Of a stretch of 64,000 bases of DNA, positions 15,851 through 38,090 are shown in pieces (positions within the stretch are counted from its first letter, which is position 1; every line of letters starts with the position of its first letter). The notes under the pieces are model-generated. The model was not told where the DNA came from and did not search any database. It saw only the letters and a list, made by a program, of their open reading frames with translations. A program made the translations under genes and the position numbers. The stretch is from a virus. Lineage: Duplodnaviria; Caudoviricetes. The stretch is taken from positions 723 through 64,722 of IMG/VR virus record IMGVR_UViG_3300032311_000675; one strand, given 5' to 3'.

Positions 15851-15853
15851 TGA

Positions 15854-24496: not shown

Positions 24497-24546
24497 GTTT
24501 GTTAAAGACACTAGGCCTTCCAGACTTGGGGATTCCTGTGAGTAGT

Positions 24547-25185: not shown

Positions 25186-25267
25186 ATCCCTGTAGTCCTC
25201 TGGTGTTCCCATTTTTGCGTTCTGGGTGTCCGAATTAAAAAGGGGTACCCTTTCGGACAAGGTTTCT

Positions 25268-25435
25268 GTGACAGAAATCGTGACATAACGGTTTTGTCAC
25301 GCAAATGTCACGCCTTGGTAGTTCTTAATAATTAAGCTATTCCAAAAGCAAGCCGTGACACGTCACGCTCTGTCACGCCCTTGCAACGAAATAATCACGG
25401 GGCAGAAGCCAGAAGCCAGAGGCCAGAAGCTAGAT
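25268..25435. repeat. Iteron-like (C)GTGACA/TGTCACG repeats plus CCAGAAG heptad repeat; candidate origin or res site
   Basis: Seven copies at 25268, 25279, 25295, 25306, 25354, 25361, 25371 in both orientations, followed by AT-rich DNA. Confidence 0.65.
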
Positions 25436-25987
25436 ATACAGGGAGTGGCTGTCGCCACATACGTTCGTGCTTTCTTTATTAAACTCAAATTAGATGGGGT
25501 AGGCAACATTACGCATTCTAACGACTCGGATCGTTTCTAGGGGCATTTAAAAGCGATTGTGGGGCTTTTAATAATAGAGTCTGACGTTAGATTTTATAAG
25601 TAGGGGCTATTAGAAAAAAGGGGGAGGGGGGTTATAGGGTAAAAAAATTTTAGGGGGGGGTGGCTATTTTGAAGCACCAGGAACAAATTGGCGGCAGGGG
25701 GTGGGTGGGCTGTTGAAGTGGGGGAGGGTAGGTATCTATTTCTTTTTATCGTAGAACACGAACGACTGGGATGCGTGAAATTGGGGGTTGGGTAGGGGTG
25801 GCCTCTGGAGATTCGTGCCTGTCGTTGCCTGTGTGTCCTCTAGCGTTCCCTGTGTCCAGCGTCCGAAAGCCTCCCTCAACGGACACCGCCCAAACCGCCC
25901 ACCCTTTCGGACACTCCCGACCCGCCGACCCTCCCCCCATCTCACGCACGACCCCCCAAACGCAAGAAGGGACACCCTTGCCCTTGC

Positions 25988-26269
25988 CTAGTCCAAGGTA
26001 ATCGTTCTGGTCTTGTGGTTTGCCCGCTTAAAGATTGCCAGCCTGTTGCGGGGTTGCGTCTTCAGTTCCGCCCATAGCCTTTCAACCGCTGACAGGTCGG
26101 GCGTTTCCGCACATACAGGCGAAGCGGGCGAAGATATCCACGCCGAGCCGTTTTCTAGTTCTTCTAGGGTGTATTCGTCCTCTGGTAGTCGAAAACTCTG
26201 CCTCGCCAGCTCTAGCCGTGGGTCTTCCTTAAATCCGTTCCACAATGTCTTCCAGTTCGTTGTATTCAT
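25988..26269 (-). CDS. Hypothetical early protein
   Basis: ORF begins at +1 of the early motif. Confidence 0.6.
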   Translation of the reverse strand: MNTTNWKTLWNGFKEDPRLELARQSFRLPEDEYTLEELENGSAWISSPASPVCAETPDLSAVERLWAELKTQPRNRLAIFKRANHKTRTITLD

Positions 26270-26299
26270 ACCCTTGCGTCCTTGCCTGTTGCATAAAGC

Positions 26300-26326
26300 A
26301 AAAAGGGGAGGCCGTAAAGCCTCCCC
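26300..26326 (-). terminator. Intrinsic terminator
   Basis: GGGGAGGC-TTTACG-GCCTCCCC-TTTTT. Confidence 0.8.
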
Positions 26327-26353
26327 CCTTGCGTCCTTTCTGTGTGTGTTGCC

Positions 26354-26749
26354 TTACACGATGCCCGACTCAACCACGCTTACAGGCTGGAAGTGTGTGT
26401 CAATTTCGATGCCGATGCCCAGCCCGCCTTTGATGCTTGCCAGCTCTGACAGGCTAAACGAACCCCACTCTGGGAAGTCTCCGACCACATACCCAAAGCA
26501 AATGTCCGAGCCGTCCCAGTCTTGCACATACCAAGACCACGAGCCGACAGGGTTAAAGAGTTTAACCCGAAAGACTGGGCTTATGGTGTTGCCGTCTTGG
26601 TCTGTGTTTTCGTCGGTCAAGGGCGTTCCCTGCAAACGGCACGCCTTCTGCATCAATTCAAGCTTCCGCTGTCCGTAGGTGATGCCGTTCTGGTTTATAT
26701 GGTCGGCCAAATATACCCCGCCGACCGCTGGGGCTGTTGTTGTGTTCAT
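26354..26749 (-). CDS. DUF2958-like protein
   Basis: VKLFNPVGSWSWYV...CFGYV...EWGSFSLSEL...GIEID.HF. Confidence 0.8.
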   Translation of the reverse strand: MNTTTAPAVGGVYLADHINQNGITYGQRKLELMQKACRLQGTPLTDENTDQDGNTISPVFRVKLFNPVGSWSWYVQDWDGSDICFGYVVGDFPEWGSFSLSELASIKGGLGIGIEIDTHFQPVSVVESGIV

Positions 26750-26958
26750 ACCTTTGAGTCCTCCGCCGTTGCCTTTTCCCTGTCCCGCAGATAATACTGC
26801 TTTTTAAGTTTCTTCTGGTATGCCGTCCAAGGCTTTTCCCCTAACGCATCCTCCCAAGCCTCCGCTATTGTCTCGCCTTCGCCTACCTTCACAAAGCCGA
26901 GCCAGTTCGTCAGACCGCTGACCGCTTCGATGATATACCGCTTGCCGTGTTGGTTCAT
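26746..26958 (-). CDS. Hypothetical protein
   Basis: SD AAAGGAGG. Confidence 0.65.
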   Translation of the reverse strand: MNQHGKRYIIEAVSGLTNWLGFVKVGEGETIAEAWEDALGEKPWTAYQKKLKKQYYLRDREKATAEDSKV

Positions 26959-27007
26959 TTGCCTCCTTTGGTTAGCTTCTTAAAAAGTTTCCGCTGTTTG
27001 TTTAAGG

Positions 27008-27289
27008 TCATCGTGTTGCCTCCCTCGCTTCCGCAACTGCCAAACACTCCGCTAGGGTTGGCTCTTGCCAGTAGGCCTTGCTGAAGGTCACCATCCACGC
27101 CCGATTGAAGGGGTGACGGATGCCACGAAAGACCATCTCACCAGCGGGGTGGCTCTCGCACTCGTCGGTCAAAATCTTAAACTTGCCCGACTTCACCGAG
27201 CCTTCGATTGTGTAGCCGACCCGCCGAGCCTCGCTTATGTAAGGCCGTAGGGCTTCCAGCGTCATCAATTTGATAAATGTATTTTCCAT
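27008..27289 (-). CDS. Hypothetical protein (start revised)
   Basis: SD AAAGGAGA before ATG 27289. Confidence 0.65.
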   Translation of the reverse strand: MENTFIKLMTLEALRPYISEARRVGYTIEGSVKSGKFKILTDECESHPAGEMVFRGIRHPFNRAWMVTFSKAYWQEPTLAECLAVAEAREATR

Positions 27290-27333
27290 TGTTCTCCTTT
27301 GTGGCCGTTGGGGTTGAACCTTGGCCTTTCGTG

Positions 27334-27450
27334 TTAGCTCAACGCCATTTCGCCGTGATACGAACCGCAAAGGTCATACACGGACAGCGTGAGGTCGGTA
27401 GAGGTTTCGTTTTGGGTTTCCGTCCAGTTTAGTTCGTTGTTGTTGCTCAT
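27334..27450 (-). CDS. 38-aa acidic peptide (not in ORF track)
   Basis: MSNNNELNWTETQNETSTDLTLSVYDLCGSYHGEMALS starts at motif +1. Confidence 0.45.
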   Translation of the reverse strand: MSNNNELNWTETQNETSTDLTLSVYDLCGSYHGEMALS

Positions 27451-27477
27451 AGTCTGGAGTCCGTGGGTGTTGCCGTC

Positions 27478-27972
27478 TTAGAGTCTGCTCGCACACACCC
27501 GCCCAATCCCACGCTCAACGCTGTCGGGATCTGTCAGCCTTGCACCGCAGACAATACACCGCCCGATTGCCCGCCCAATCTCTTGGCATTGTGCGAGCGT
27601 GAGACGCATTGATTCGTCAAGGCTTCCCATCGCACCCCGCACGAAATCAAACTTTCCTGTCTGGGTGTTGAGGGTGAGGGCATAGAGATGCCCCGCCGAT
27701 GCTTTCTGGACTCGGTAGACGATGCCCGATGCGTCCCGATACATTCCTTCCGCCTTCGGGGAATTGGTCGGGGTTGGGTTAGCCTCTTGCCATCTGTCGA
27801 GGGCTTGTCGGAAAGCCACCGAGTCGGCATAGCGGTGATTGGGCAGAAAGTTTTCTGCAAACCAACGCAAGGAGGTTGCGGGCATATTTGAAACGGCCAC
27901 GCCCCGCCACTTCCCAACAGGGCAAAGGGCGGAGCGGTAATCTTCTGATAGTGTGTGTGGGTTGTTGTTCAT
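27478..27972 (-). CDS. DUF6011-like Zn-finger protein
   Basis: CIVCGARLTDPDSVERGIGRVC; N-terminal PVGKWRG...SLRW. Confidence 0.75.
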   Translation of the reverse strand: MNNNPHTLSEDYRSALCPVGKWRGVAVSNMPATSLRWFAENFLPNHRYADSVAFRQALDRWQEANPTPTNSPKAEGMYRDASGIVYRVQKASAGHLYALTLNTQTGKFDFVRGAMGSLDESMRLTLAQCQEIGRAIGRCIVCGARLTDPDSVERGIGRVCASRL

Positions 27973-27996
27973 ACCCACGAGTCCGTCCGTGTTGCC

Positions 27997-28101
27997 TCAT
28001 TTCAAAAACTCCAGCCAATCCAACAAGGCCATCCCAATCAGAACGCCGAAGGACAGGACGCACCACCACTTCAACATCTCGGCAAGCCTGTCGTTCGTCA
28101 T
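27997..28101 (-). CDS. 34-aa single-TM protein (not in ORF track)
   Basis: MTNDRLAEMLKWWCVLSFGVLIGMALLDWLEFLK; ATGA coupling, SD GAGGAGG. Confidence 0.55.
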   Translation of the reverse strand: MTNDRLAEMLKWWCVLSFGVLIGMALLDWLEFLK

Positions 28102-28553
28102 TTTGTGACCTCCTCGGCGGGCTGAAAGAAGGGTTTATTTTTCGCTATGATTTCGGCGAGGATGCCTTCTGAATCTTCCGTTTTCTGCCAGTATTCGTGT
28201 TTGCGGAGCTGGTCGTTGTCCAGTCGCTTCCAATCCTTTTCTCCGTCTGGGGATTGTTCGAGAACGACTGCGTCATTTTCAAACGAAATCCTGTATGTGC
28301 CGTTGTCGTAGTTTTCGCAGTCCAACTGACCAAGGATTCCGACCCCGACGCTGGTTGTGCCTCCGAAGAAGTTCCCGATGATTTGTGCGAGCCTTGCGGT
28401 TGCATAGGTTTCATCGTAGAAACGCACCCCGAAGTGTTTTGCGGTCTCGGCAAACGCCAAGACTGATTCCGCACCGCCGTTCCAATGCAGATAGATTCCG
28501 ACTGAGTTTTCCGTTGGCTTTTTTGCCAATGTGATGACTGCTCTGTTTCCCAT
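28098..28553 (-). CDS. Conserved-type phage hypothetical protein (start revised)
   Basis: MGNRAVIT...IYLHWNGG.ESV...DNGTY; SD AAAGGAGA. Confidence 0.7.
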   Translation of the reverse strand: MGNRAVITLAKKPTENSVGIYLHWNGGAESVLAFAETAKHFGVRFYDETYATARLAQIIGNFFGGTTSVGVGILGQLDCENYDNGTYRISFENDAVVLEQSPDGEKDWKRLDNDQLRKHEYWQKTEDSEGILAEIIAKNKPFFQPAEEVTK

Positions 28554-28638
28554 AATTAGATTCTCCTTTGGTTGAGGTTGCTGTTCATATCTTGGAGTCC
28601 TTGTTTGTTGCGTAAATGTTTCGGGGTGTAAGAGTCTT

Positions 28639-28821
28639 TCAGTTTTTCGCCCAACCCCACGAACACAGCTTTTCCATTTCTGCGTCTGCCACGGCTTGAG
28701 CGTCGGAGGTTGTCGCCCCCAAGGCCTCCAGCTCCAGCACCCGCTTCTGCCACAGCTCGTCGGAACAGAAGCCTTCATTGACAGGGGAGCAGTTGAGATG
28801 GCCGTATGTGCAGGGGTTCAC
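28639..28821 (-). CDS. Hypothetical protein
   Basis: Coupled ORF. Confidence 0.55.
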   Translation of the reverse strand: MNPCTYGHLNCSPVNEGFCSDELWQKRVLELEALGATTSDAQAVADAEMEKLCSWGWAKN

Positions 28822-29162
28822 GCCCGACCCACTTTCTTTAGGTAGGACTTGGCTAGGCAGTCGTGCAGGGTTTCAAGCGTTGTCATAACCTTGGCCGAGT
28901 TGAATTCCTTTTGCCTGTCACACTCTCCGACATAGTCGGCAAGGAGCTGAAAAGTATCAGCCAACAGGCAAAGGTCGGGAGCGTGGATTTCATAATGCCA
29001 CCGCCACTTCTGGTCGGGGGTTGCTCGGTGTTGTGAGTCCTTGGTGAGGTGAGCGAGTAGGGAAACCAGCAAATCCATTTGGTCTACTGATTCCGTGTGA
29101 CGCTCTACATCGCCACAAAGTCCTCGGATAGAAGCCCAAGAGAATTTTGGGGGGTAACTCAT
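28818..29162 (-). CDS. Hypothetical protein
   Basis: Coupled ORF, SD GAGGAGG. Confidence 0.6.
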   Translation of the reverse strand: MSYPPKFSWASIRGLCGDVERHTESVDQMDLLVSLLAHLTKDSQHRATPDQKWRWHYEIHAPDLCLLADTFQLLADYVGECDRQKEFNSAKVMTTLETLHDCLAKSYLKKVGRA

Positions 29163-29278
29163 CTCATCACCTCCTCTAATTGTTCCGCCTTGGTAGGCAT
29201 AAGCTCTGCGATGTCAGTTGTCTTGACCGAGAATACCTCTCGGAAAAGTTGGAATACTAAGTCTTGGTTGTCGTTCAT
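29159..29278 (-). CDS. 39-aa protein (start revised)
   Basis: MNDNQDLVFQLF... begins at motif +1. Confidence 0.5.
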   Translation of the reverse strand: MNDNQDLVFQLFREVFSVKTTDIAELMPTKAEQLEEVMR

Positions 29279-29301
29279 ATCGTGGAGTCCGTTGCCGTTG
29301 C

Positions 29302-29352
29302 AAAAAAAGTTGGCGGGATGGGCAGAACAACAACGAACACCCACCCCGCCAA
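29302..29352 (-). terminator. Intrinsic terminator
   Basis: TTGGCGGGGTGGG...CCCATCCCGCCAA-C-TTTTTTT. Confidence 0.75.
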
Positions 29353-29570
29353 TCAAAAACCCGCACAGGATTAAGGGTTGCATCATCGACCCTACTACTC
29401 TCGCAAAAGTCCAGCCTGTGCTTACTTACGGATCACCATTTTACTGGTGACGGAAAGACCAGCTCGACACCCCGCCCACTCCTTACTGACTTCTGGATTA
29501 AATCCAATCGTCTAGCTGGAGCAACCGACAGGCCGCCACCCTTATCCGCTTAACTTATCTGGGTTTTTGA
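29353..29570 (-). ncRNA. Candidate multi-branched ncRNA (~218 nt)
   Basis: Nested stems TCAAAAACCC/GGGTTTTTGA, GGATAAGGGT/ACCCTTAATCC, CGGCCTGT/ACAGGCTG, CCAGCT/AGCTGG, TGGAT/ATCCA, TCACCA/TGGTGA. Confidence 0.65.
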
Positions 29571-29574
29571 AATC

Positions 29575-29721
29575 CTATAATTTTTCTTCCTTCCCATATC
29601 TTTCAATGAACACATCTGTATCCGAACCCTCGGTATCGTAATCTTTTATTGTTACCTCGATTCCCTTGGGCTTTCGGACTAGGTGAGCGACCCCACCACG
29701 GATTTCGACTAACACCTTCAC
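29575..29721 (-). CDS. 48-aa protein (not in ORF track)
   Basis: MKVLVEIRGGVAHLVRKPKGIEVTIKDYDTEG...; GTGA coupling. Confidence 0.6.
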   Translation of the reverse strand: MKVLVEIRGGVAHLVRKPKGIEVTIKDYDTEGSDTDVFIERYGKEEKL

Positions 29722-29921
29722 AGGGAAAAGCCTTTCTTGGTCTGGGCGACCAAATTGTCCACCAGCTCATTAAACTGGTCTGGGGTCACAGATTCTTTTC
29801 GTGTTGCGGGTTGCCCGCCCCACTCCGCCAGAATCCACAACAGGCTTTCCACTTGGTTAATGTTTAGGGAAAAGCTGAACAGGGAAGGCTTTTCCTCGGT
29901 ATGTGTCGCAAGGGCGATCAT
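29718..29921 (-). CDS. Hypothetical protein
   Basis: Coupled ORF. Confidence 0.6.
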   Translation of the reverse strand: MIALATHTEEKPSLFSFSLNINQVESLLWILAEWGGQPATRKESVTPDQFNELVDNLVAQTKKGFSL

Positions 29922-30169
29922 ACGACCTCCTCAAACTTCACCAGCTTGCAACCCTCTGGGATCGTTTGCTTCTCGCCCTCTTTTGCCCCGCTGATCTGCT
30001 CTAGGACTTGCAAGAGCTTCTCGGTAGAGGGACACCACACGGATTGCCAAGATGAGAGGAATAGGTTGCCAGTTGAAACAAGCCACCCGCTTCCATTGTA
30101 AGCATCCAAATGGTTTTTGGATACTTCGACCATCCGCTCTCCGATTGTCATTTTGTAGACCAAGCTCAT
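29918..30169 (-). CDS. Hypothetical protein
   Basis: Coupled ORF. Confidence 0.6.
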   Translation of the reverse strand: MSLVYKMTIGERMVEVSKNHLDAYNGSGWLVSTGNLFLSSWQSVWCPSTEKLLQVLEQISGAKEGEKQTIPEGCKLVKFEEVV

Positions 30170-30573
30170 TGTCTTGCCTCCAAGGTTCTGACGCTGGAAA
30201 AGAAGATGCGGATGAGAATGTCTGCATCCTCCAAGCCTTGACGCACCGCCAAGCCATCACAGGGAATACTCGAAGCCTTGATAAGCTCCAAAGCCCTGCG
30301 GGTAATCCGAATCTCGGTCAAGCACGCACGGAACTTCTCGGCGAACTCCTTGGCAGAAGGAGAGCCTTCGGCCTCGCCGTGACGGAAATACATCGCCGTG
30401 GCAGAGCGGAGCAACATCTCGGAAAGATGTCCACCAGCCCGATCTTCTGGAAGGGAGGCGGAGATTCCCAGCATATTGCTGGTGAATGTCAGAAGCCTGT
30501 CCTTCAAGTCTGGGGAGCGGTGTGTGGGGGGTTGTGGTTGCGGTTGTGGAGTAGATTTTAGTTTGGTTGTCAT
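30166..30573 (-). CDS. Four-helix-bundle protein (23S rRNA IVP family), start revised
   Basis: DLKDRLLTF...QL/MLLRSAT...HGEA..S.S.KEF..K...CL.E...T...L.LI. Confidence 0.8.
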   Translation of the reverse strand: MTTKLKSTPQPQPQPPTHRSPDLKDRLLTFTSNMLGISASLPEDRAGGHLSEMLLRSATAMYFRHGEAEGSPSAKEFAEKFRACLTEIRITRRALELIKASSIPCDGLAVRQGLEDADILIRIFFSSVRTLEARQ

Positions 30574-30595
30574 AGGTTGTAGTCCTTTCGTGTTG

Positions 30596-31162
30596 CTAGT
30601 TTTTCTTTGTGTAAGCGTGAGCCTCAACCTCATCGTATTCCTCAAGGGTCGAGCTGATGCCCAGCTCCTCGTCCAGCTCCTCTGGGGTCTCTTCCTTTTT
30701 GGTGTAGTAGTTGTCGAGGGGAGTATCTCCGTTGGCGTAGAAGTAGGTCTCGCCCCAGAATCCAAAGCCCTCGTCAAGGTAGGTCATACGGATGTCGGCC
30801 TTGATGAGCTTCGCCAGCTTCTCAATGACAGGGCAGGGAGGCGTCCAAGCAGTTTGGAGGCTGATGGAATCTCCGTCGAAGTCCACGGAGTAGCTGTTCC
30901 ACTTCGTCCCCCAGTTTGCGACACACCATTCATACCAAGTCGGGAATCCATATTTTGCTTTGTTGGCATCGTATTGAGCTTGGCGGGTGCGACCTTCCTC
31001 CGTGTTGAGATCCACCGACCCAGAAGTGATGTTCAACTCCTTGGGCATCGGGATGATCTTGTTGAAGTCGAGGAACACCGAGCCTTCGGATGACAGGTAT
31101 TCTTTGACCAGCTTCCGTGCATTGGAAGGGAAGTAGAGTCTGACGCTAGTATGGTTGGGCAT
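30596..31162 (-). CDS. DUF1281/YubB ferredoxin-like protein
   Basis: MPNH...DFNKIIPMP...WYEWCVANWGTKWN...TAWTPP...YLDEG. Confidence 0.8.
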   Translation of the reverse strand: MPNHTSVRLYFPSNARKLVKEYLSSEGSVFLDFNKIIPMPKELNITSGSVDLNTEEGRTRQAQYDANKAKYGFPTWYEWCVANWGTKWNSYSVDFDGDSISLQTAWTPPCPVIEKLAKLIKADIRMTYLDEGFGFWGETYFYANGDTPLDNYYTKKEETPEELDEELGISSTLEEYDEVEAHAYTKKN

Positions 31163-31210
31163 TTGTTTTTCTCCTTTGGTTGGTTGTTATCGTGGAGTCC
31201 TCTGGTGTTG

Positions 31211-31306
31211 CTAACTTTTCCAAACAATCCACCCATAAAAGCAAAGGATGAACAGGGATAACCCTATGAAGAACCATTCTTCGTTGGGGGTAAGGGTGGC
31301 GATCAT
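31211..31306 (-). CDS. 31-aa single-TM protein (not in ORF track)
   Basis: MIATLTPNEEWFFIGLSLFILCFYGWIVWKS; ATGA coupling. Confidence 0.5.
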   Translation of the reverse strand: MIATLTPNEEWFFIGLSLFILCFYGWIVWKS

Positions 31307-31503: not shown

Positions 31504-32084
31504 ATAAACCTATCCTTTGCCCAAAATCTGCATTCCGCATCGGGCGAGCGGGTTTGTGTTTCATATTTGGAAAGGGGGTGTTTGCAGACCACTCCCTCCC
31601 AGACCACTTCTTTTCTCAAAGCATTGACCGCCTTCATCGTCTCAATCGCTTGGACGGCCTCGGACTGCGTGAAGCTCGGTAGGCGGAGGAAACGACCTTT
31701 GGGAATGTCATCCCAAGGACACTCCAGAAGCACAGAGAGCCAGTCTCTGCGTTCGGCGTAAGTCCCATCGCCCACGACATCTAACAAGAGGACTGACCCA
31801 GCTCCTGTCTTGGTGCGTCGGCCAAGCAACTCGCAATCCAGCCAACGCACAGCTCCGAAGTTGTATCCGTCACCCCGAACGACTGACATCACTTGGGAGG
31901 CCATCGAGAAAGGTTTGCCGTGTCTTGACCACACGACCCCATCTTGAAGATCGACCAAGCAACGCCAGCCGTTTGCCTTGCCCTCGAAAGCCCAGTTTGA
32001 AAAGGCTTTGTTCTGACTTGCCCCTCTGCAACTGAATGGTCGCAGGGGGTAAGTCAAAAAGGGCATACGCCTCTCAAGCAACAT
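31500..32084 (-). CDS. Minimal ATP-dependent ligase-like nucleotidyltransferase (adenylation domain only)
   Basis: Motif I EGKANGWR, LDCEL, LLDV, EGVVCK, WAK; no OB domain. Confidence 0.8.
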   Translation of the reverse strand: MLLERRMPFLTYPLRPFSCRGASQNKAFSNWAFEGKANGWRCLVDLQDGVVWSRHGKPFSMASQVMSVVRGDGYNFGAVRWLDCELLGRRTKTGAGSVLLLDVVGDGTYAERRDWLSVLLECPWDDIPKGRFLRLPSFTQSEAVQAIETMKAVNALRKEVVWEGVVCKHPLSKYETQTRSPDAECRFWAKDRFI

Positions 32085-32664
32085 AGATCCTCGCAGGGCA
32101 TACGGCCTGTAACGCCATATTCTGTTCGGGGGTGAGGAGCTTGTGACGCTCGGTGTGGAACTGCTCGGTAGGGAGAAGCCCAGCCTTGATCGTCACCGCC
32201 TCGCCAGCACCGCACTTGGCGACCAGATCCCGAAGGCCATCGACAAAGGCTTGAGCGTGGGTTGCGGGAATCTTCGCACCCTCGACCTTGAAGTCGAAGG
32301 TCTGACGGAATCCCTTCTGGGCAATTTGCTCGCCAACGATGGAGACGAGGGGAGCAGTATCCGTCACCACAGGATAGATCCTCGCACAAGTGATGCGGGC
32401 GATGACATTGTCACCGAGCATCTCTGCCGTTGAGGCGGGCTCTTGGCCTTGGGATGCCCGCTGATTGTTGAGCTTCCAGAACTCTTGGGAAGCGTGTTCA
32501 AGGAGAATACCCTTGGTTGCCTTGAGGACTCCCTCGGCACTCTCAAAGGAGGCCTTGGCTTCCACAAAGCTAGTCACCGCCTCCGCAGGGCAGGGGATGA
32601 TAGGCTTCTCGGTTTTCTTCTTCTTTTCCGTCGTCGTAGTGAATCCAGCTAGGTTGATGTTCAT
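32074..32664 (-). CDS. Hypothetical protein (start revised)
   Basis: MNINLAGF begins at motif +1. Confidence 0.7.
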   Translation of the reverse strand: MNINLAGFTTTTEKKKKTEKPIIPCPAEAVTSFVEAKASFESAEGVLKATKGILLEHASQEFWKLNNQRASQGQEPASTAEMLGDNVIARITCARIYPVVTDTAPLVSIVGEQIAQKGFRQTFDFKVEGAKIPATHAQAFVDGLRDLVAKCGAGEAVTIKAGLLPTEQFHTERHKLLTPEQNMALQAVCPARIYVA

Positions 32665-32689
32665 AAGGTGTAGTCCTTTGGTGTTTCGA

Positions 32690-33085
32690 TTATTCGTCGT
32701 CCGAATAGTCTGTATTGATTGTGATGACTCCGAAGTGGAGAACTCCGTCATCGTTCCAGCACAGGGTTGGGGATTTGAACTCAACCTCCCTGTTGCCGTG
32801 GTCGGGCTGGCCTCCGTAAGCCACAGGGACAAGCCCGATCAACCCAGCATCGACCCCATATTTTCTGCCACCCTTGTCGTAATAAACGCCGTCTCCGTGT
32901 TTTGTGCCAAAGGCAAGGATCTGGTATCCGCCGACCTCGCCCACAGGGTTGCGGAAGTAATCGCAGTTTTCGAGCAGGGGGATCCAGTCATCATCACGGA
33001 TGACATAACAAGGGTCACCCAAGTAATAGCGACCAGCGGGAATAGTAACTTCAAAGGAGGTTTTTGTTTTTATGATTGTTTTCAT
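32690..33085 (-). CDS. Conserved-type phage protein (DUF4241-like)
   Basis: YYLGDPCYV...TKHGDGVY...VDAGLIGLVP. Confidence 0.7.
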   Translation of the reverse strand: MKTIIKTKTSFEVTIPAGRYYLGDPCYVIRDDDWIPLLENCDYFRNPVGEVGGYQILAFGTKHGDGVYYDKGGRKYGVDAGLIGLVPVAYGGQPDHGNREVEFKSPTLCWNDDGVLHFGVITINTDYSDDE

Positions 33086-33118
33086 ATCTGGGAGTCCTTT
33101 GGTGTGGCTACATTCGGG

Positions 33119-33388
33119 CTACAGGATCTCCTCGGCCTCTAGGATTTTAGATGGCGTGAGGATGACCTTCCAGCGGGGGTCTTTTTTGTATTCGTAACAG
33201 GGGCGGAGGGTTTGGCCGTGGCCTTTGAGTCCCAGCCAGCGGGCAGGGGAATAGGCTACATAGTCTCCGTTAGGTAAGACCTCCTCGATCTTGTAGAAAA
33301 AGACCGCACCCTTGTCGTCCGTGATCCTGTATTCGACCCCGCATTTTAGGATCAAGCCCAGGAGAAGTGTTTGAAGGAGTAGCTTCAT
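33119..33388 (-). CDS. Small protein with hydrophobic N-terminus, paralog of the next gene
   Basis: GVEYRIT...FYKIEEVLPNGDYV. Confidence 0.6.
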   Translation of the reverse strand: MKLLLQTLLLGLILKCGVEYRITDDKGAVFFYKIEEVLPNGDYVAYSPARWLGLKGHGQTLRPCYEYKKDPRWKVILTPSKILEAEEIL

Positions 33389-33714
33389 TGAACTTCTGGT
33401 AGCTCTGATTCTGGAATCCAAGTCTTGTTAAGCCTGTTCCAAGAAGTGTCCTCGGCGGCCTTCGGTGGACGGATGAGCTTGGCCTCAGATATGTCGAGGG
33501 CAGATATAACGACCCAGCCCTTGTCCCAAATGATGATTGGAATATGGCCGTTATTATACCCAACGATCTTTTTTGGGCGACGAACGACATAGTCTCCGTC
33601 TGGGGTGACTCCCTCAACCTTGCAGAAGGTAGACCTACCAGAAGTGTGGGTGATCTTATACTCGCCACCGATGGCAAGGATGATGGCTAGGAACAAGGGG
33701 AATAGGCGGTTCAC
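33385..33714 (-). CDS. Small protein with hydrophobic N-terminus
   Basis: GGEYKIT...FCKVEGVTPDGDYV. Confidence 0.6.
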   Translation of the reverse strand: MNRLFPLFLAIILAIGGEYKITHTSGRSTFCKVEGVTPDGDYVVRRPKKIVGYNNGHIPIIIWDKGWVVISALDISEAKLIRPPKAAEDTSWNRLNKTWIPESELPEVQ

Positions 33715-34007
33715 GCCAGATCCCTCATCGTTACGACGCTTTCCGCATCGTTGTAGTCACGAGGCTCGTGGGGATCATTGACCCGCTGTTTGAACAGGTA
33801 CTCCCATCTGACGCCGTCGCCTTCCTCGCCTGTTTCCGTGGAGTAAATGTCGCTCTCCTCGGCAAAGTAGGCGTAATGATATTTCTTGTGGTTGTTGGGG
33901 AACATTTGACGGATGCCACGCTCGAGGATTTGGCGAACAGCCTCCCTGTCGTGCTTGGCGTCAATGGTTAGGCTTACATCTATTTGGAGTCTTACTTCTT
34001 GTTTCAT
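33711..34007 (-). CDS. Hypothetical protein (start revised)
   Basis: MKQEVRLQ begins at motif +1. Confidence 0.6.
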   Translation of the reverse strand: MKQEVRLQIDVSLTIDAKHDREAVRQILERGIRQMFPNNHKKYHYAYFAEESDIYSTETGEEGDGVRWEYLFKQRVNDPHEPRDYNDAESVVTMRDLA

Positions 34008-34282
34008 TATATGGTGTCCTTTGGTGTGGCTATTTTTCGGTACTTTTTGCCAAAAGCTTTGTCCAAGGCTTTCTTTACGCACTCGTTTCTGGAGAAGCCG
34101 ACATTTTCCAAGGGGAACGAGTCGGAAATTGCGTCACCTTTGGTTTCGTTGAACCAATGACGCACTCCGCCTTCAATGTCGGCAAGCAATTCGCAAGCCT
34201 GTTTTTGAGACAAGGTGTTGCCGTGGCGAACTGCGATGTCTTGGACATCTTCCCAAGTGATTTCAAACTTGATGCTGGTCAT
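34007..34282 (-). CDS. Hypothetical protein
   Basis: Coupled ORF. Confidence 0.6.
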   Translation of the reverse strand: MTSIKFEITWEDVQDIAVRHGNTLSQKQACELLADIEGGVRHWFNETKGDAISDSFPLENVGFSRNECVKKALDKAFGKKYRKIATPKDTI

Positions 34283-34551
34283 TTGGCCGTCCCCACAACT
34301 CTGAAGGGTTCTCCACAGACCTCGATAGTGTGGCCGTCCTGTCCGTCATCTACCTCGCCAAGCCGACTGCCGTGAAGCAATCGGTTGAGGAGTTTGACGA
34401 GGTTCGGGGACATAAATCCGTACTCCACAGGCTGGTGAAGGCCGTCGGCCAGCTTTCCGCTGTCGTGGATATCCACCCACACCACCTTGTCGGTTGGGGA
34501 AGCGGGGGGTTGGTAGTTGGGTTTTAGTTTGGTTCGGTTTTTGGTTTTCAT
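34279..34551 (-). CDS. Hypothetical protein
   Basis: ORF in the operon. Confidence 0.6.
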   Translation of the reverse strand: MKTKNRTKLKPNYQPPASPTDKVVWVDIHDSGKLADGLHQPVEYGFMSPNLVKLLNRLLHGSRLGEVDDGQDGHTIEVCGEPFRVVGTAK

Positions 34552-34573
34552 TTGGTTTTCTTTCTTTCTTTGG

Positions 34574-34810
34574 TTAGGTGTGATTTCTGTTTGCAGTGAT
34601 GTCTAAATGCCCAGCTCCGTTGCCCTCGGGGTCACGCATAATCCAAGCCGTGCGAATTGTTCCGTCCTTGGCTCGGAATACCAATCCGTACTCCTCGTCC
34701 CGATGATCCGTGTCGGTGTTTTTCACAATGTCTACGCATGTAGACTTTAGGAGTTGGCCTAGGTACTTGAATGCCCAGTCGGGCTTGTTGGTGTCGGTTA
34801 GGAATATCAT
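34574..34810 (-). CDS. Hypothetical protein (start revised)
   Basis: Begins at motif +1; WIMRDPEGNGAGHLDI tail. Confidence 0.65.
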   Translation of the reverse strand: MIFLTDTNKPDWAFKYLGQLLKSTCVDIVKNTDTDHRDEEYGLVFRAKDGTIRTAWIMRDPEGNGAGHLDITANRNHT

Positions 34811-34832
34811 ATACTGGAGTCCTTTCGTGTTC

Positions 34833-35180
34833 CTAAAATTGCATTTCGGGAAACAATTCGTTCTGTTTGCCATGCCCAGAAAGGTATTTGCGTCCTTGGC
34901 GAACAAATGCCCAAGGATCGTCTACTGGATAGCCAGTCCTCGGGTTTTCGGTGAAAGGTTCTCCAGTAAACAGGGAATGGGCAGAGTCTTTACCCTTCTT
35001 CCCGATGGCTCGGTAATACGAGTGTTCCATAAGGTATTTTGTGAACTGACCAGTAAGCGGGTTGTACCAGTAGCAACGCCATAGCCCGCCACGATTTTTG
35101 ATTCGTCTGGTGACCATCAGCCAAGGGCTGTTCTTCCACGCCTTGAACTTGTGACGGCCTTGAGTGATGTGCTTGTTCAC
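34833..35180 (-). CDS. Hypothetical basic protein (start revised)
   Basis: GTGA coupling to the methyltransferase stop. Confidence 0.55.
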   Translation of the reverse strand: MNKHITQGRHKFKAWKNSPWLMVTRRIKNRGGLWRCYWYNPLTGQFTKYLMEHSYYRAIGKKGKDSAHSLFTGEPFTENPRTGYPVDDPWAFVRQGRKYLSGHGKQNELFPEMQF

Positions 35181-35776
35181 GGATTGGCCTCGAAGAAGGC
35201 TTGAGCAAACCCAGCAGGGGTGAGTGATCGCAGTTCCTTGGTCTTCTCGCTGTTGCCACCCAGCTTTGCCCACATCCAAGAACCCTTCTGCCCCTTGGAG
35301 TTGGTATACATAATCGGTCGTACGGGATTGCGTACAGGAGGCATCTTGAACTTGCCCCAGAGACCAGTTTTCTTGGTGTAAGGATCGCCGTACTGCCAAG
35401 GCTGGAAGTAGGTCGGGCCGAAGTATTCCATTTCTGGATACAGGCTGTTGATGCGACCCACAGGATTCTCGATGACCCACCACTTGGGATCTGTCTTCTG
35501 GATAATCCACATTGTTTTGTGGAGTAGCTTCAACCCCTCGGAGGTGCGTCCGTCCTTATCCTTGGCGGAGAAGTGCCTAGCCCCAGAGACGCAGAAGTGT
35601 GTGCAGGGCGGGGCGGCCAAGATGCCGTGGATCTTTCCAGCCTTATCCAGCCAAGCCTCGGTGATGTCTAAAACATCGTCGCCGTGCTTGATGTCTACTT
35701 GGATAGTTTTGTAGCCAGCCTCGTGATAAGGCCGTGACCACGCACCAGAGTAGTCGAATAGTGACAGGATCGTCAC
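35177..35776 (-). CDS. Short C5-cytosine DNA methyltransferase-like protein
   Basis: ILSLFDYSG, ILAAPPCTHF (catalytic PC), WVIENP, KKTGLWG. Confidence 0.85.
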   Translation of the reverse strand: MTILSLFDYSGAWSRPYHEAGYKTIQVDIKHGDDVLDITEAWLDKAGKIHGILAAPPCTHFCVSGARHFSAKDKDGRTSEGLKLLHKTMWIIQKTDPKWWVIENPVGRINSLYPEMEYFGPTYFQPWQYGDPYTKKTGLWGKFKMPPVRNPVRPIMYTNSKGQKGSWMWAKLGGNSEKTKELRSLTPAGFAQAFFEANP

Positions 35777-36108
35777 CGACAGCCCGCCCCAGTAATACGG
35801 ATTTCGCTTTTGGAGTACTTGACCTCAACAACAGGGGTTTGCGGGGAACACTTGGAGATCTGTTCCGCAAAAGTGCTAGTTACTACACCACCGCTGATGT
35901 CGATGATCGGCTTGTCGCCTTTGCCAGAGACCTTGTATTTCCCCTTGGGGTTGGCGGTAAGCTCAATGACATTTTGGGTGAGGCTGGCGTATCGGTCATA
36001 CCGAGTGCCGACCTCGAACCCCGCCTCCACGAGGCGTTTGCCTTCCAGCCAGATACGGCTCGTTCCCTTGCCGTGGTTAGTTCCGATTATGGTTAGTTGT
36101 GTTTTCAT
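35773..36108 (-). CDS. AbrB/SymE-fold-like protein
   Basis: RIWLEGKRLVEAGFEVG resembles the SymE core. Confidence 0.55.
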   Translation of the reverse strand: MKTQLTIIGTNHGKGTSRIWLEGKRLVEAGFEVGTRYDRYASLTQNVIELTANPKGKYKVSGKGDKPIIDISGGVVTSTFAEQISKCSPQTPVVEVKYSKSEIRITGAGCR

Positions 36109-36136
36109 GAGTTGGAGTCCTCTGGTGTTGCCAAAA

Positions 36137-36484
36137 TCAAGGGAAGGGAACCCAGTCCTCGGGGAAGTCGGTTCGCAGATCCCTCTTGCGCTTGGCCTCG
36201 TCGGCCTGTGCCGTCTCTTTGTCTCGGCGTTTCCTGTGACGCCCTTGAGGAACGTGGCCTTTGGCTGGGTTGAGGTTGGTGATGGCCTTCTCCTTGTTGA
36301 CCCAGATCAAGGTCTCGTGGACTGGGTCGTAAGAGATGACCTCGCCTTCGGAAGCCCAGAGCTTGATGTAGTCCAAGTAGGACTGAGCCTCCTTGAGGTC
36401 GGGGAAGGGGATGGAATAGCCGTCAATCCAGACGTTCCATCTGTTTGCGATATACTTGAGCTTATGTATTCCAACCTGGGCCAT
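36137..36484 (-). CDS. Hypothetical protein
   Basis: Begins at motif +1. Confidence 0.6.
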   Translation of the reverse strand: MAQVGIHKLKYIANRWNVWIDGYSIPFPDLKEAQSYLDYIKLWASEGEVISYDPVHETLIWVNKEKAITNLNPAKGHVPQGRHRKRRDKETAQADEAKRKRDLRTDFPEDWVPFP

Positions 36485-36514
36485 AGGCTGGAGTCCGCAT
36501 CTGTTGTAAAAGCT

Positions 36515-36525
36515 ATGCGTCGCCT
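36515..36525. promoter_or_regulatory. Late-type palindrome ATGCGTCGCCT
   Basis: Centre 36520 is 56 bp upstream of ATG 36576; TTGGCT at -35. Confidence 0.65.
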
Positions 36526-36575
36526 ACACGCAGAAACCTTTTGGCTTACTTGGGGGAATAGTCACATTTCGACCT

Positions 36576-36929
36576 ATGGCATTTAGCGCAACACCATCGG
36601 GCTGGCTGGGAGCGGGTTATACCCTCTCGGGTAGCGGAACTACGGCGGCAATCAATTTCGGGATCAGCGGGAATACCAACGCAACCCTCCCAGAGATCAC
36701 TACTGCCGAGGCCAACGCAACTACTGGCGACATTCGCAAGATTTACTACGGAATAGTGGAACAGCTTTACCAATCCTACCTAGCCAAGGCCACAGCAGAC
36801 AGACCCAACAGGATGACTCTCTCGAAATCCTCAAGCGTTGATGCAACGACTGGGTTAATTACCACCAATTACACCGTTCAGTTCGTTCTGGCCGCTACTG
36901 GGCTGGATGTAACTACTGAATCCGCTTAA
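36576..36929 (+). CDS. Putative small virion structural protein
   Basis: T/A/G/S-rich 117 aa behind a late-type palindrome. Confidence 0.6.
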   Translation: MAFSATPSGWLGAGYTLSGSGTTAAINFGISGNTNATLPEITTAEANATTGDIRKIYYGIVEQLYQSYLAKATADRPNRMTLSKSSSVDATTGLITTNYTVQFVLAATGLDVTTESA

Positions 36930-36945
36930 TTTTCCCACCTTACGC

Positions 36946-36980
36946 TTGACCTCGCTTTTCGTGAAGGTACAAGAAAAGGT
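36946..36980 (+). promoter_or_regulatory. Sigma70-type promoter, likely leaderless
   Basis: TTGACC exactly at -35 of GTG 36981, TACAAG 16 nt later. Confidence 0.45.
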
Positions 36981-37436
36981 GTGAAGCTATATCAGATAGA
37001 GGGAATACCCTCACTTGAGCAGTTGAAGAAGGAGCATCCCTTCACCATTTCTGGAATACTTACCGAGGATGAGAGCCTTGTGGCCTTAGTCGGGCCGAAT
37101 GTGGAAAGCCAGACTTGGACGGCGATGATCTCGATTAAGAAGAATACAGATACTTGGTCGACCAGAGCTTTCCTGTGGTGTCACCCAGAGCCGATGAACA
37201 TCCTTTACGAGAAGTGGGGAGTGGATGTGCAACCTCCGTTCCAATGGGCAAAAATGAAACAGGCACCAGGACACGGACTGGAATGGCAGATCGAGGAGAG
37301 TGCAGGGGATATGACAGACGCTTTAGACAAGACCCTTACGAGCATCACCAAATGCAGACAGGGGACTCGTTTGGCTATGGCTCACTTAAAGGCGGAGGCC
37401 GTCAGACTCCAAGCCAGCCGAGTTAGTCTTAATTAA
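36981..37436 (+). CDS. Hypothetical protein
   Basis: 151-aa ORF. Confidence 0.65.
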   Translation: MKLYQIEGIPSLEQLKKEHPFTISGILTEDESLVALVGPNVESQTWTAMISIKKNTDTWSTRAFLWCHPEPMNILYEKWGVDVQPPFQWAKMKQAPGHGLEWQIEESAGDMTDALDKTLTSITKCRQGTRLAMAHLKAEAVRLQASRVSLN

Positions 37437-37732
37437 AGAATCGTAATCATGCTGGAGGCTTCCAGCAGTTTGAGCTTCGTACTCTTCTCGCCTTTTGGGC
37501 CAAGGATAAGGCCACGCCCACCGACCTTTGTTTTCCCGATAAGGAACTCGCCCTTGTGGCGTTTCGATGGCTCTTTGACCTTCCAGTCTTCGTCCACAAA
37601 TAAAACATCGTTACCAATCCCAATGGCCTCGATATAGCCGCCAACCAGATTTTGGATCCCAGCCAGATCGCCCTTGATTTTGATTTCGCTGATGGCAGGG
37701 GTGGCTTTGGGATCTATTAAAATTGCTCTCAT
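37433..37732 (-). CDS. DUF3846-like protein (start revised)
   Basis: MRAILIDP...LAGIQNLVGGYIE...LFVDED. Confidence 0.75.
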   Translation of the reverse strand: MRAILIDPKATPAISEIKIKGDLAGIQNLVGGYIEAIGIGNDVLFVDEDWKVKEPSKRHKGEFLIGKTKVGGRGLILGPKGEKSTKLKLLEASSMITIL

Positions 37733-37763
37733 ATTTAGAGAGTCCCTTGCTGTTCCGTTTCTT

Positions 37764-37964: not shown

Positions 37965-38090
37965 ACCTAGGGCTAGGCAATCAGCTCTTTTTATCAATAG
38001 CAAAAGTATGGTGTTCAACACCTTGCGGTGTTTTCCACCTTTTTTTTTGAGGTTGTGCGATTAACCAATCACCAATTTAATTACAAAAAT

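Follow-up and report, generated by a model that had tools for sequence, protein, structure and literature searches.

Mycobacteriophages of Cluster K and Microbacterium phages of Cluster EF carry SAS and ESAS elements, asymmetric sequences found in 10–19 copies per genome, in a single orientation and at non-structural genes only, for which a role in translation has been suggested without proof (PMC3203893, PMC7302621, PMC11373665, PMC12699233). As described for the Start-Associated Sequence (SAS), it occurs in 11–19 copies, lies 3–7 bp before the start codon (ATG at 80 of 93 sites), sometimes contains the upstream stop codon, precedes unrelated genes and is absent from the host genome; stoperators are named there as a contrasting case (PMC3203893). 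The promoters of phiEco32 gp36 have a single box (tAATGTAtA) with the start 6–8 bp downstream, that of phage 7-11 gp47 is GTAAtg-N16-aCTA, and the phage 7-11 sigma factor is only 15% identical to gp36 (PMC8948821). AR9 and phiKZ promoters were detected through motif over-representation and confirmed by dRNA-seq, and phage transcripts are often leaderless (PMC5312081). Polyvalent proteins have been argued to enter with the DNA and to aid early replication or transcription (PMC5512222).

Here we describe a two-part motif in a 64,000-nt stretch (the window) of a 64.7-kb, circularly assembled virus record. The source is an uncultured lake phage.

An oriented motif array ahead of small genes

The strict pattern (GNNACACNNNNGGACT) gave nine matches, on the minus strand only, compared with 0.07 expected, and at least nine were reached in 0 of 100 shuffles. 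Under a relaxed pattern, in which GCAACAC is matched at 5 or more of its 7 positions and N4 and GGAC follow, the minus strand has 17 copies, all from 25209 to 37756, and the only other copy is on the plus strand at 57793; 60 first-order Markov simulations of both strands averaged 2.25 copies and gave 6 at most (Table 1). The relaxed form can be written as G(C/G)(A/C)ACAC-N4-GGACT(C/A)C, and the array is limited to 12.5 kb of small genes on one strand. The first-pass annotation had counted sixteen copies, and its 15 copies with an ATG and the copy at 31211 stand, with a degenerate copy at 25849 besides; the ACAC that it gave for the upstream half is found in 10 of the 17 copies, the other seven having ACAG, ACGG, ACAA or ACGC.

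An ATG follows 15 of the 17 copies (0.05 in simulations), at 12 nt from the first G of GGAC in 13 and at 13 nt in two (ATG at 37732 and 25185), and the base before it is T in 13 of 15 cases, the exceptions being 36108 (C) and 34007 (A). These rules agree with the earlier description, as do the copies inside upstream coding ends, with overlapping stop and start codons (34030 and 26772), the two copies behind intrinsic terminators (hairpins 26330–26301 and 29350–29312, the latter followed by AAC and U7 and stopping one base short of copy 10), and two copies with a separate AAAGGAG. At copy 8 (31211) a 26-nt A/C-rich leader with AAAGGAG leads to ATG 31162 of a DUF1281/Api92-like gene. At copy 11 (28611) the ATG at 28588 starts an ORF of just 10 codons, which ends 2 nt before ATG 28553 of a 151-aa gene; an AAAGGAG precedes this second ATG. 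All 15 motif-led genes start with ATG, and GTG starts occur in 5 of the 21 other minus-strand genes of the region (genes called by eye).

Table 1 Motif copies, adjoining hairpins and the candidate reader in the window
Feature	Coordinates	Strand	Description
Giant ORF	2..15853	-	5,606 aa; runs off the window start, over the circular junction, and ends at window 63632
Sigma region-4-like domain	4490..4765	-	P0020 residues ~198-289, within the giant ORF
Copy 17	25183..25209	-	7-nt final spacer; ATG of 212-aa serine recombinase, DNA-invertase type
Degenerate copy	25826..25849	-	GGAACGC-N4-GGACACA; non-coding DNA, no ATG; also in G001 and G003
Copy 15	26267..26292	-	GCAACAG-N4-GGACGCA; ATG of 93-aa gene
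Intrinsic-terminator-like hairpin	26301..26330	-	13 pairs, T-run; directly upstream of copy 15
Copy 14	26747..26772	-	GCAACGG; within upstream gene's end (ATGA overlap); ATG of DUF2958 gene
Copy 13	27448..27473	-	ATG of 38-aa ORF
Copy 12	27970..27995	-	ATG of DUF6011 gene (164 aa)
Copy 11	28586..28611	-	GCAACAA; ATG of 10-codon ORF
Copy 10	29276..29301	-	GCAACGG; directly behind terminator; ATG of 39-aa ORF
Terminator-like hairpin before copy 10	29302..29350	-	-26.4 kcal/mol, z -4.54; AAC + U7
Copy 9	30571..30596	-	ATG of 135-aa gene
Copy 8	31188..31211	-	No ATG; predicted +1 is A at 31188
Copy 7	32662..32687	-	ATG of 196-aa gene
Copy 6	33083..33108	-	ATG of 131-aa gene (phrog_20074)
Copy 5	34005..34030	-	GGACACC; within upstream gene's end (TAATG overlap); ATG of 98-aa gene
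Copy 4	34808..34833	-	ATG of 78-aa gene
Copy 3	36106..36131	-	GCAACAC-N4-GGACTCC; ATG of 111-aa gene; C at -1
Copy 2	36482..36507	-	ACAACAG-N4-GGACTCC; ATG of 115-aa gene
Copy 1	37730..37756	-	GGAACAG-N4-GGACTCT, 7-nt final spacer; ATG of DUF3846 gene (37732->37436)

Conservation in relatives and a second dialect

Three close relatives carry 12–15 copies each with the same spacing, and among the 51 distinct instances in the four genomes the ATG lies at 12 nt in 41 and at 13 nt in six. Variation among these instances falls on the upstream flank, the N4 and the final spacer, and both boxes are invariant or nearly so. Copy 8 is without an adjacent ATG in all four genomes, where two different genes follow it, each with its own leader, and the motif therefore need not adjoin a start codon; the A/C-rich sequence after the predicted +1 is the same whether coding or not. 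Ends of homology blocks shared with three relatives fall within -15 to +40 of a motif start in 23 of 73 cases (4.8 expected).

In a distant clade (G011), whose giant protein is ~29% identical, the box is (g)CGGAC(G/T)-N6-GTT(T/G)AA(G/T)GGT-ATG, with 12 copies on one strand and 0 on the other (simulated mean 1.25). Spacing is identical in 10 of these 12 copies, the upstream box is again at -23 to -17, and ATG is the start of all 12 motif-led genes. The purine run of this second dialect ends 1 nt before the ATG, which leaves no room for a Shine-Dalgarno contact, and non-motif genes of G011 have AGGAGG-type sites 4–10 nt upstream. It is geometry that the two clades have in common, not pairing with rRNA.

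Promoters, translation signals and other readings

On balance, the motif copies are probably promoters specific to the phage, with transcription beginning at the ATG or beside it, a reading favoured by the shared geometry, the two copies behind terminators and the two short AAAGGAG leaders. The 26-nt unit would consist of an A/T-rich stretch, G(C/G)AACAC, N4, GGACT(C/A)C, N5-6 and ATG, with boxes at about -23 to -17 and -12 to -6 counted from the A of the ATG. GGACTC would then stand at the exact place of a -10 hexamer, with the start at or within 1–2 bases of that A. We infer promoter action on DNA, a +1 at the A of the ATG and leaderless translation from the sequence, and the outcome would be leaderless mRNAs for ~15 small genes of accessory or anti-defence type, plus two short-leader mRNAs with their own AAAGGAG.

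This reading is supported because the motif is enriched, limited to one strand and confined to the region of small genes, and because the motif-led genes all start with ATG here and in G011 while other genes partly use GTG; it is strengthened by relatives that keep both boxes while the spacers vary. Two copies stand a single base behind terminator hairpins, and the genes there therefore need a new start. The homology-block breaks at the motif add support, since promoter cassettes for module shuffling show the same (PMC2839356). Contigs from four RNA runs (which cannot show starts and may include DNA) cross several copies, with X16 record 9 spanning 26737–27986 and X15 record 2 and X19 record 22 crossing the terminator and copy 10, and these count against promoters. 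Two further points count against promoters: 15–17 of them within 12.5 kb is dense, and no known sigma architecture matches the 4–6-bp gap between the boxes. The earlier proposal of promoters with boxes at about -23 and -12 and leaderless mRNAs is partly supported and gained from box conservation, the second dialect and the homology breaks; the likeness of its -35 box to that of ECF promoters is one of geometry only, and such a spacer fits no ECF promoter.

Also in favour of promoters of the phage's own, the region has 9 matches to sigma-70-type promoters versus 10.3 expected. In a scan of species genomes the strict motif had only 14 hits, single and unrelated, and clustered copies were not found in any bacterial species genome scanned. 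A phage-borne factor would be expected, because the signal is not host-type and is not clustered in those genomes. The only candidate reader found is the sigma region-4-like domain in a virion-type polyvalent protein, the product of the giant ORF (Table 1). The sigma-like fragment of the first-pass annotation holds only to the extent of this region-4-like domain; searches with Pfam, PHROGs and NCBIfam found neither sigma region 2 nor an RNA polymerase, and a DxDGD motif was not found. The giant protein also has DdrB-like ParB and helicase domains, and the position of its gene among late structural genes suggests that it may be packaged in the virion. A homologue in one MAG labelled Micrococcales is a host hint only.

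The main rival, which we regard as possible though rather unlikely, is a SAS-like translation signal as in actinobacteriophages: an mRNA element inside longer messages, at the ribosome-binding position, that aids or regulates the initiation of translation, possibly by way of a phage or host factor. The properties of the motif match those given for SAS (PMC3203893), although its distance to the ATG is fixed at 12–13 nt where that of SAS is variable, and the Cluster EF consensus GGGAAAGGACCCC has AAAGGAC-CC in common with its proximal half (PMC7302621). Most copies have (A/G)AAGGA 9–10 nt before the ATG, a 16S 3'-end complement at a usable Shine-Dalgarno distance, and the extended ribosome-binding site named earlier as an alternative is a possible reading for this clade; however, a C directly 5' of GGAC in 12 of the 51 distinct instances weakens pairing, contact with the rRNA tail is impossible for CT(C/A)C and GCAACAC, neighbouring genes use the canonical AAAGGAG, and the distant clade keeps the geometry with the Shine-Dalgarno-compatible contact absent. 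The ending of the 10-codon ORF would suit translational coupling, and contigs that traverse the copies are as expected of longer messages, but the copy at 31211 is kept in four genomes with no start codon and the two terminator-abutting copies leave no space for another promoter.

An operator role is improbable; the copies would then be sites at which a DNA-binding regulator of the phage silences or times these genes, distributed over the operon in a single orientation as the 13-bp 'stoperators' are in Cluster A mycobacteriophages. The copies are numerous, oriented, asymmetric and in short gaps, and a possible regulator, an Arc/CopG-like protein at 37964->37767 (its Arc-like match is weak; PHROGs, E 0.0012), adjoins a palindrome, AACACC-GCAA-GGTGTT, followed by GAACACC (~38010-38040), with AACAC in common with the upstream box. 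The motif, however, is neither dyad-symmetric nor tandem, as ribbon-helix-helix sites usually are, an operator needs no fixed 12–13-nt distance to the ATG, and genes behind terminators would still be left without a promoter; the same unit could also serve as both operator and promoter. Least credible of all is that the motif marks where a long transcript is cut into leaderless monocistronic mRNAs, or where gene cassettes are swapped by recombination: homology-block ends gather at the motif, the array is closed by a serine recombinase gene and RNA contigs cross copies, but the unit has no hairpin or dyad such as the usual endonuclease or serine-invertase sites carry, and family scans gave no evident candidate nuclease. 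Ordinary homologous recombination would itself be expected to leave breaks at short conserved sequences, as at PeSLs (PMC2839356).

Comparison with described systems

About 15 small accessory genes of this phage are preceded at a fixed distance by a two-part signal of its own, probably to let messages begin at the start codon, and the phage has no recognisable sigma or polymerase gene as a reader. The array resembles SAS/ESAS in being asymmetric and confined to one orientation and the non-structural part, in lying a few bases ahead of starts with a strong ATG preference, and in having a second conserved element just upstream, unrelated genes behind and an unproven function (PMC3203893, PMC7302621). 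It differs in its fixed distance to the ATG, which is 3–9 bp in SAS/ESAS, and in its 7-nt box 4 nt upstream, where those have a SigA-like -35/-10 with 17-bp inverted repeats; the sister clade here has a dialect with no Shine-Dalgarno-like core, and the host, unlike those of actinobacteriophages, is not known as an actinobacterium.

The phiEco32-like sigma promoters are a precedent, and the phage here shares the SU10 type of portal and adaptor. Both have a phage-private consensus for one gene class with a box at the -10 position, and the phiEco32-like consensus shifts between related phages along with a very divergent factor (PMC8948821), whereas here a sigma gene is not detectable, the boxes are 4–6 bp apart, the transcripts are predicted to be leaderless, and small accessory genes are served instead of middle or late genes. 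In its size and its DdrB-like domains the giant protein recalls N4 virion RNA polymerase, T4 Alt and P1 DdrB (PMC5512222), but a polymerase domain was not found in it; the word 'sigma' is absent from the main text of that paper, which thus does not describe a sigma-4-like module in a polyvalent protein.

AR9 and phiKZ early and late promoters likewise have phage-private boxes at a fixed start distance, e.g. AACA-N6-T(A/G), but multisubunit polymerases are encoded by these giant phages themselves, and leaders in AR9 measure 26–491 nt (PMC5312081). In the PeSL cassettes of T4-type phages, short promoter units, sometimes paired with hairpins, flank small non-essential genes and serve as joints for gene swaps between related phages; the host holoenzyme reads those promoters, which are of sigma-70-like type, while in the present array a hairpin accompanies only 2 of the 17 copies (PMC2839356).

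The motif array and the genes behind it

The array is built of units of the form G(C/G)(A/C)ACAC-N4-GGACT(C/A)C-N5-6-ATG. The strict pattern GNNACACNNNNGGACT matched nine times in the window, always on the minus strand, against 0.07 matches expected, and the relaxed pattern recovered 17 minus-strand copies in the array and one plus-strand copy elsewhere, whereas simulated sequences averaged 2.25 copies and never exceeded 6. The first-pass annotation, made from the sequence alone, had described a promoter-like motif confined to the minus strand of this block, and these counts bear it out: an oriented, over-represented consensus before one gene set is one of the features expected of a phage-private promoter class. 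None of the other over-represented k-mers in the window was convincing. An ATG follows 15 of the copies, lying 12 nt (13 copies) or 13 nt (two copies) from the first G of GGAC, for an expectation of 0.05 such copies; GGACT(C/A)C stops 5–6 nt short of the ATG, GGACTC occupies positions −12 to −7, and the −1 base is T in 13 of the 15 ATG-led copies.

The special cases described in the first-pass annotation were also all recovered. The copy at 31211 has no ATG of its own and is followed by a 26-nt A/C-rich stretch with AAAGGAG and then by an ATG at 31162, while the copy at 28611 opens an ORF of only 10 codons, after which AAAGGAG and an ATG at 28553 follow. Copies 29301 and 26292 start directly 3' of terminator-like hairpins, and copies 34030 and 26772 sit within the end of the preceding gene. 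The hairpins upstream of copies 10 and 15 have the GC-rich stem and subsequent T-run of intrinsic terminators. The motif mends start codons that the longest-ORF rule misplaces, for example at 34007, 32664 and 25185. One of the 17 copies is degenerate and lies in non-coding DNA.

Motif-led genes are small, and those that can be named encode DUF3846, DUF1281/Api92-like, DUF6011 and DUF2958 proteins and a DNA-invertase-type recombinase, which are of the kind typical of early or anti-defence regions in phages and plasmids. A C5 methyltransferase and a ligase-like protein come later within motif-led units. The 135-aa motif-led protein, which may resemble the four-helix-bundle protein of 23S rRNA intervening sequences, had no Pfam match at E ≤ 0.5. 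Between copies 1 and 2, two plus-strand ORFs without a family interrupt the otherwise all-minus block.

Three non-coding features adjoin these genes. One stretch that ends with a strong terminator is kept in relatives, has no family in Rfam, and is covered by contigs of RNA runs from two studies at peak word depths of 400 and 142, both contigs ending at 29205. An abundant non-coding RNA may be made from this stretch. A second region, just upstream of the invertase-type recombinase gene, holds long G-runs and C-runs, repeated GGACAC/GTGTCC words, at least four GTGACA/TGTCAC words and a tandem CTTCTGGC, and may act as an origin, in packaging or as the site of the recombinase. The third is a palindrome (AACACC-GCAA-GGTGTT) followed by GAACACC and, on the other strand, a T9 run, placed between a divergent gene of weak Arc likeness and the plus-strand replication module; AACAC is common to this palindrome and the upstream box of the motif.

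Coordinates of features in the window and, where indicated, in G011, a complete record of the distant clade
Feature	Position	Strand	Remark
Motif array, copies 1–17	25209–37756	minus	
Degenerate motif copy, one of the 17	25849		
Giant ORF, 5,606 aa	2–15853, across the record junction to 63632–63949	minus	quarter of the genome
G011 two-box motif array	56834–64408 and 366–2351 of G011	plus	loci L074–L077
SET-domain protein gene	23876–24496	plus	Pfam E 1.4e-10
Non-coding region with G-runs and C-runs	25215–25988		770 bp
Non-coding stretch with terminal terminator	29302–29578	minus	275 nt
Gene of 135-aa motif-led protein	30169–30573	minus	
Two ORFs within the block	36576–37436	plus	117 and 151 aa
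Weakly Arc-like gene	37964->37767		
Palindrome	~38005–38045		

The virus record is 64,722 bp long, of which the window leaves out 722 bases; the same 123 bases stand at both ends of the record, indicating a circular assembly. It encodes a terminase, an SU10-type portal and adaptor, a capsid protein, a CHAP endolysin and a recombination/replication module (ExoX-like, DUF2800 nuclease, RusA and DnaD-like proteins), together with a SET-domain protein that is possibly a protein lysine methyltransferase. No tRNA genes were found in the window, and Rfam gave no family at gathering score in the window and none at E ≤ 1 in 25100–30000. A megablast of 25000–38000 and a tblastn of the capsid protein had no match in the phage collection, where the helicase part of the giant protein found three records (one Bacteroides and two Acinetobacter phage records) at 23–24% identity. 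The window DNA or close relatives of it were found in freshwater and lake metagenomes from 15 studies. A partial homologue, protein P0012 (3,018 aa, 75% identical), comes from a metagenome-assembled genome labelled Micrococcales; this is the only hint of a host obtained, and it points to a phage of freshwater Actinobacteria if that binning reflects the host. Leaderless mRNAs are common in Actinobacteria, and a G+C content of ~51% occurs among the freshwater members.

Conservation and exchange among relatives

Across viral contigs the strict motif occurred at 24 loci, ~15 of them within a handful of multi-copy contigs; five other viral contigs with one strict match each were set aside as single chance copies. 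The early regions of three relatives were examined and contain 15, 15 and 12 copies, without exception on the coding strand. A logo of 51 distinct instances favours A/T at −29 to −25, in part an effect of the preceding gene's stop codon, often TAG, which directly adjoins the motif, and then gives GCAACAC at −23 to −17, a purine-rich N4 nearly without T, GGACTCcA at −12 to −5, three free positions, T at −1, the ATG and A-rich codons. At orthologous sites both boxes are kept, and the spacers and upstream flank vary.

Homology between these genomes is split into blocks, and 23 of 73 block ends fall within −15 to +40 of a motif start against 4.8 expected, a sample whose ends are not independent of each other as the relatives are closely akin. 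The motif and ATG of one site are shared by three genomes, two of which have a 10-codon remnant and a Shine-Dalgarno (SD)-led gene behind them; in the third, another gene follows immediately. Taken together, the block ends at the motif and the swapped genes behind one unit indicate that the unit acts as the head of an exchangeable cassette. The promoter-terminator cassettes (PeSL) of T4-type phages are described as behaving in this way (PMC2839356).

Homologues of the giant protein, 5,300–5,650 aa long, fall into two clades: a close group with 73–97% identity over the segment examined, and a second group at ~29% from contigs of ~65 kb. The equivalent small-gene block of G011, from the second clade, holds 12 same-strand copies of (g)CGGAC(G/T)-N6-GTT(T/G)AA(G/T)GGT-ATG and none on the opposite strand, compared with a simulated mean of 1.25. 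Spacing is identical in 10 of the 12 copies; at the copy at 60137 the ATG lies 3 nt further away, which predicts a leader of 3 nt. As in the window, the upstream box is found at −23 to −17, T at −1 and A-rich codons after the ATG, with a gap between the boxes of 6 bp here and 4 bp in the window's clade. The sole purine run of the G011 motif (AAGGG or AATGG) stops one base short of the ATG, and other G011 genes have AGGAGG-type sites 4–10 nt upstream. Common to the two clades, then, appears to be a two-box signal of their own, set a constant distance before the ATG, and not complementarity to rRNA.

Promoter or translation signal

We consider that the motif is probably a promoter acting at the DNA level, with the transcript starting at or beside the A of the ATG. 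Transcripts that start on the AUG would require a rigid distance, which makes the fixed spacing an argument for a promoter, as does the position of GGACTC where a −10 hexamer lies. Four genomes keep the copy at 31211 and none has a start codon there, and two copies are flush with terminators, both of which point the same way. Start codons are ATG in all 27 motif-led genes (15 in the window and 12 in G011) versus GTG in 5 of 21 other genes called by eye, which again favours a promoter. Host promoters of the sigma-70 type (TTGACA-N16–18-TATAAT-like hexamers) are not enriched in the region, where 24000–39000 has 9 matches for 10.3 expected and no motif copy coincides with one, and this too favours a promoter.

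The main rival is a translation signal on the mRNA, akin to the Start-Associated Sequence (SAS) of actinobacteriophages. Cluster K mycobacteriophages are described as carrying 11–19 copies of a 13-bp SAS GGGATAGGAGCCC in one orientation and confined to the non-structural genes (PMC3203893; PMC11373665; PMC12699233). These elements lie 3–7 bp before the start codon, which is ATG in 80 of 93 cases, sometimes take in the stop codon of the gene before, and are preceded by another conserved element in about half of the cases (PMC3203893). According to the same accounts a role in translation is suggested and the function is not established (PMC3203893; PMC11373665; PMC12699233). In Cluster EF Microbacterium phages ten copies of GGGAAAGGACCCC are reported at the position of the ribosome-binding site (RBS), and other clusters have further oriented motifs 14–30 bp before start codons (PMC7302621). 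The window motif has the positional traits of an SAS, an asymmetric element 3–9 bp before the start codon: it stands at the RBS position, in one orientation and within non-structural genes, with ATG at 15 of 15 starts and every copy on the minus strand. Its proximal half (c/g)AAAGGACTCC resembles the EF sequence and stands at a usable SD distance, which makes an SAS-like role in translation a serious rival. A 16S-complementary core (AGGAG/AAAGGA) is approached by the A-rich N4 and GGA in most copies, but 12 of the 51 instances have a C in front of GGAC. G011, however, keeps the geometry and not the complementarity to rRNA. The extended RBS that the first-pass annotation had named as an alternative therefore survives in the window's form of the motif and fails in that of G011, which lacks the SD contact, and we regard a translational role as unlikely.

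An operator role like that of the stoperators of Cluster A phages would fit the AACACC-containing palindrome adjoining the weakly Arc-like gene that heads the block; as an alternative to a promoter we judge it very improbable, and the two roles could be compatible. RNA processing or site-specific recombination at the motif is less probable still.

Available RNA data do not separate a promoter from a translation signal. Six RNA runs contain 22–26% of the sampled words, their sequences being in contig form. The four metatranscriptome runs examined, as contigs, gave neither starts nor ends of transcripts, and stretches that they leave uncovered carry no meaning. Several of their contigs cross motif copies and the terminator at 29350–29302, as expected with read-through transcripts or DNA, and so favour neither reading.

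A candidate reader and known promoter classes

In the species genomes scanned, the strict motif occurred as 14 scattered single copies in unrelated taxa, none of them resembling this phage. It is therefore no common host promoter in those genomes, and a phage-borne reader is expected. No match to PF04542 was obtained in this phage at E ≤ 10, and sigma region 2, a single-subunit polymerase and a two-barrel polymerase signature were found in none of the frames or proteins scanned. Nothing polymerase-like emerged from the giant protein by Pfam and PHROGs on 600-aa pieces, phmmer against PDB sequences or a DxDGD scan, or from its residues 3001–5046 in the ESM Atlas. This protein carries DdrB-ParB, AAA_34/ResIII and Helicase_C_4 domains, its helicase being of the Strawberry-notch type, and so has unrelated effector domains in one polypeptide within a late/structural gene context, as in the polyvalent proteins of Iyer et al. 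(2017). The DdrB-ParB, Strawberry-notch-type helicase and sigma-4-like parts account for only ~1,300 aa; the first 1,700 aa and the greater part of the last 2,600 aa had no match.

The sigma-like segment lies at about residue 3,700. It scored 17.4 bits against Pfam Sigma70_r4_2 (PF08281), below the cut-off of 25.7, and 28.4 bits (E 1.1e-6) against NCBIfam sigma70-ECF (TIGR02937), below the cut-off of 42.9; the equivalent segment of clade 2 reached 17.8 bits (E 0.002) against sigma70-ECF, also below the curated cut-off. By hhalign against 24 ECF sigmas the probability was 92.3%, over 36 columns of region 4 only. The AlphaFold model of the piece has a mean pLDDT of 41.6, with 60–75 for residues 210–285. 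A structure search independent of Foldseek returned sigma factors in all of its first 17 rows, aligned on region 4, the best being SigL region 4 (Z 8.2, rmsd 2.8, 77 of 80 residues aligned), where a Z near 8 is common among helical models. Foldseek returned no match at E ≤ 0.001, and among 1.84 billion representatives phmmer recovered only the segment's own cluster; the profile reached SigA among PDB sequences at E 0.29, amid noise. In both clades ~15 residues form a loop that separates the two helix-turn-helix helices. Of the sigma-like fragment mentioned in the first-pass annotation, then, the region-4-like part stands and a region 2 was not found; from these profiles and models we accept that the giant protein carries a region-4-like domain and nothing more.

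That polyvalent proteins accompany the DNA into the cell is argued in a paper whose main text does not contain the word sigma (PMC5512222). Because of the gene position and the weak domain call, it can be proposed that the injected giant protein supplies promoter specificity for the 15–17 boxes through this domain, a proposal that we hold to be improbable. The region-4-like domain, perhaps with an adjoining cryptic region 2, would steer the host core RNA polymerase; anti-defence-type genes would then yield leaderless mRNAs seconds after entry, before any phage protein synthesis, and in each of the two clades box and reader would have evolved together. If so, the 4–6-bp gap would set these promoters apart in architecture from those of every known sigma. 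Two sigmas of phiEco32-like phages are reported to share 15% identity, which indicates that phage sigmas can diverge past recognition, and such a sigma can work from a single box with the start 6–8 bp downstream (PMC8948821).

If the units are promoters, a lineage of abundant lake phages drives an accessory block, probably of anti-defence genes, by a private code that also dispenses with the ribosome-binding site. The use of such a code without a recognisable sigma or polymerase gene would raise the question of its reader, which the two dialects, as a natural experiment, make traceable by co-variation. As promoters, the 30-bp units would also be compact, portable expression signals.

Promoters of ECF sigmas have a −35 box (AAC-type) and a −10 box with ~16–17 bp between them, and the ECF likeness seen in the first-pass annotation was lost on this comparison, the boxes being 4 bp apart here and 6 bp in clade 2. 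Sigma-54 promoters carry GG at −24 and GC at −12, ten bases apart; this two-box geometry is similar, and sigma-54 was rejected as the invariant dinucleotides are missing from the logo. GACTC at −11 to −7 matches its placement in the T7 promoter, but a T7-like reading was dropped when no single-subunit polymerase was seen in this phage by a PF00940 search; the control of that search matched nothing either, so that such a polymerase may yet be present. Phages are already known to have private promoters and leaderless messages, and promoter cassettes are known to act as joints for recombination. The absence of an ordinary reader gene, the two-box architecture with its 4–6-bp gap, the pair of dialects in sister clades and the bridge to the unexplained SAS elements are new. 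This last point bears on SAS function in actinobacteriophages, as one gene-start architecture is found here both in a form that looks like a ribosome-binding site and in a sister form unable to be one.
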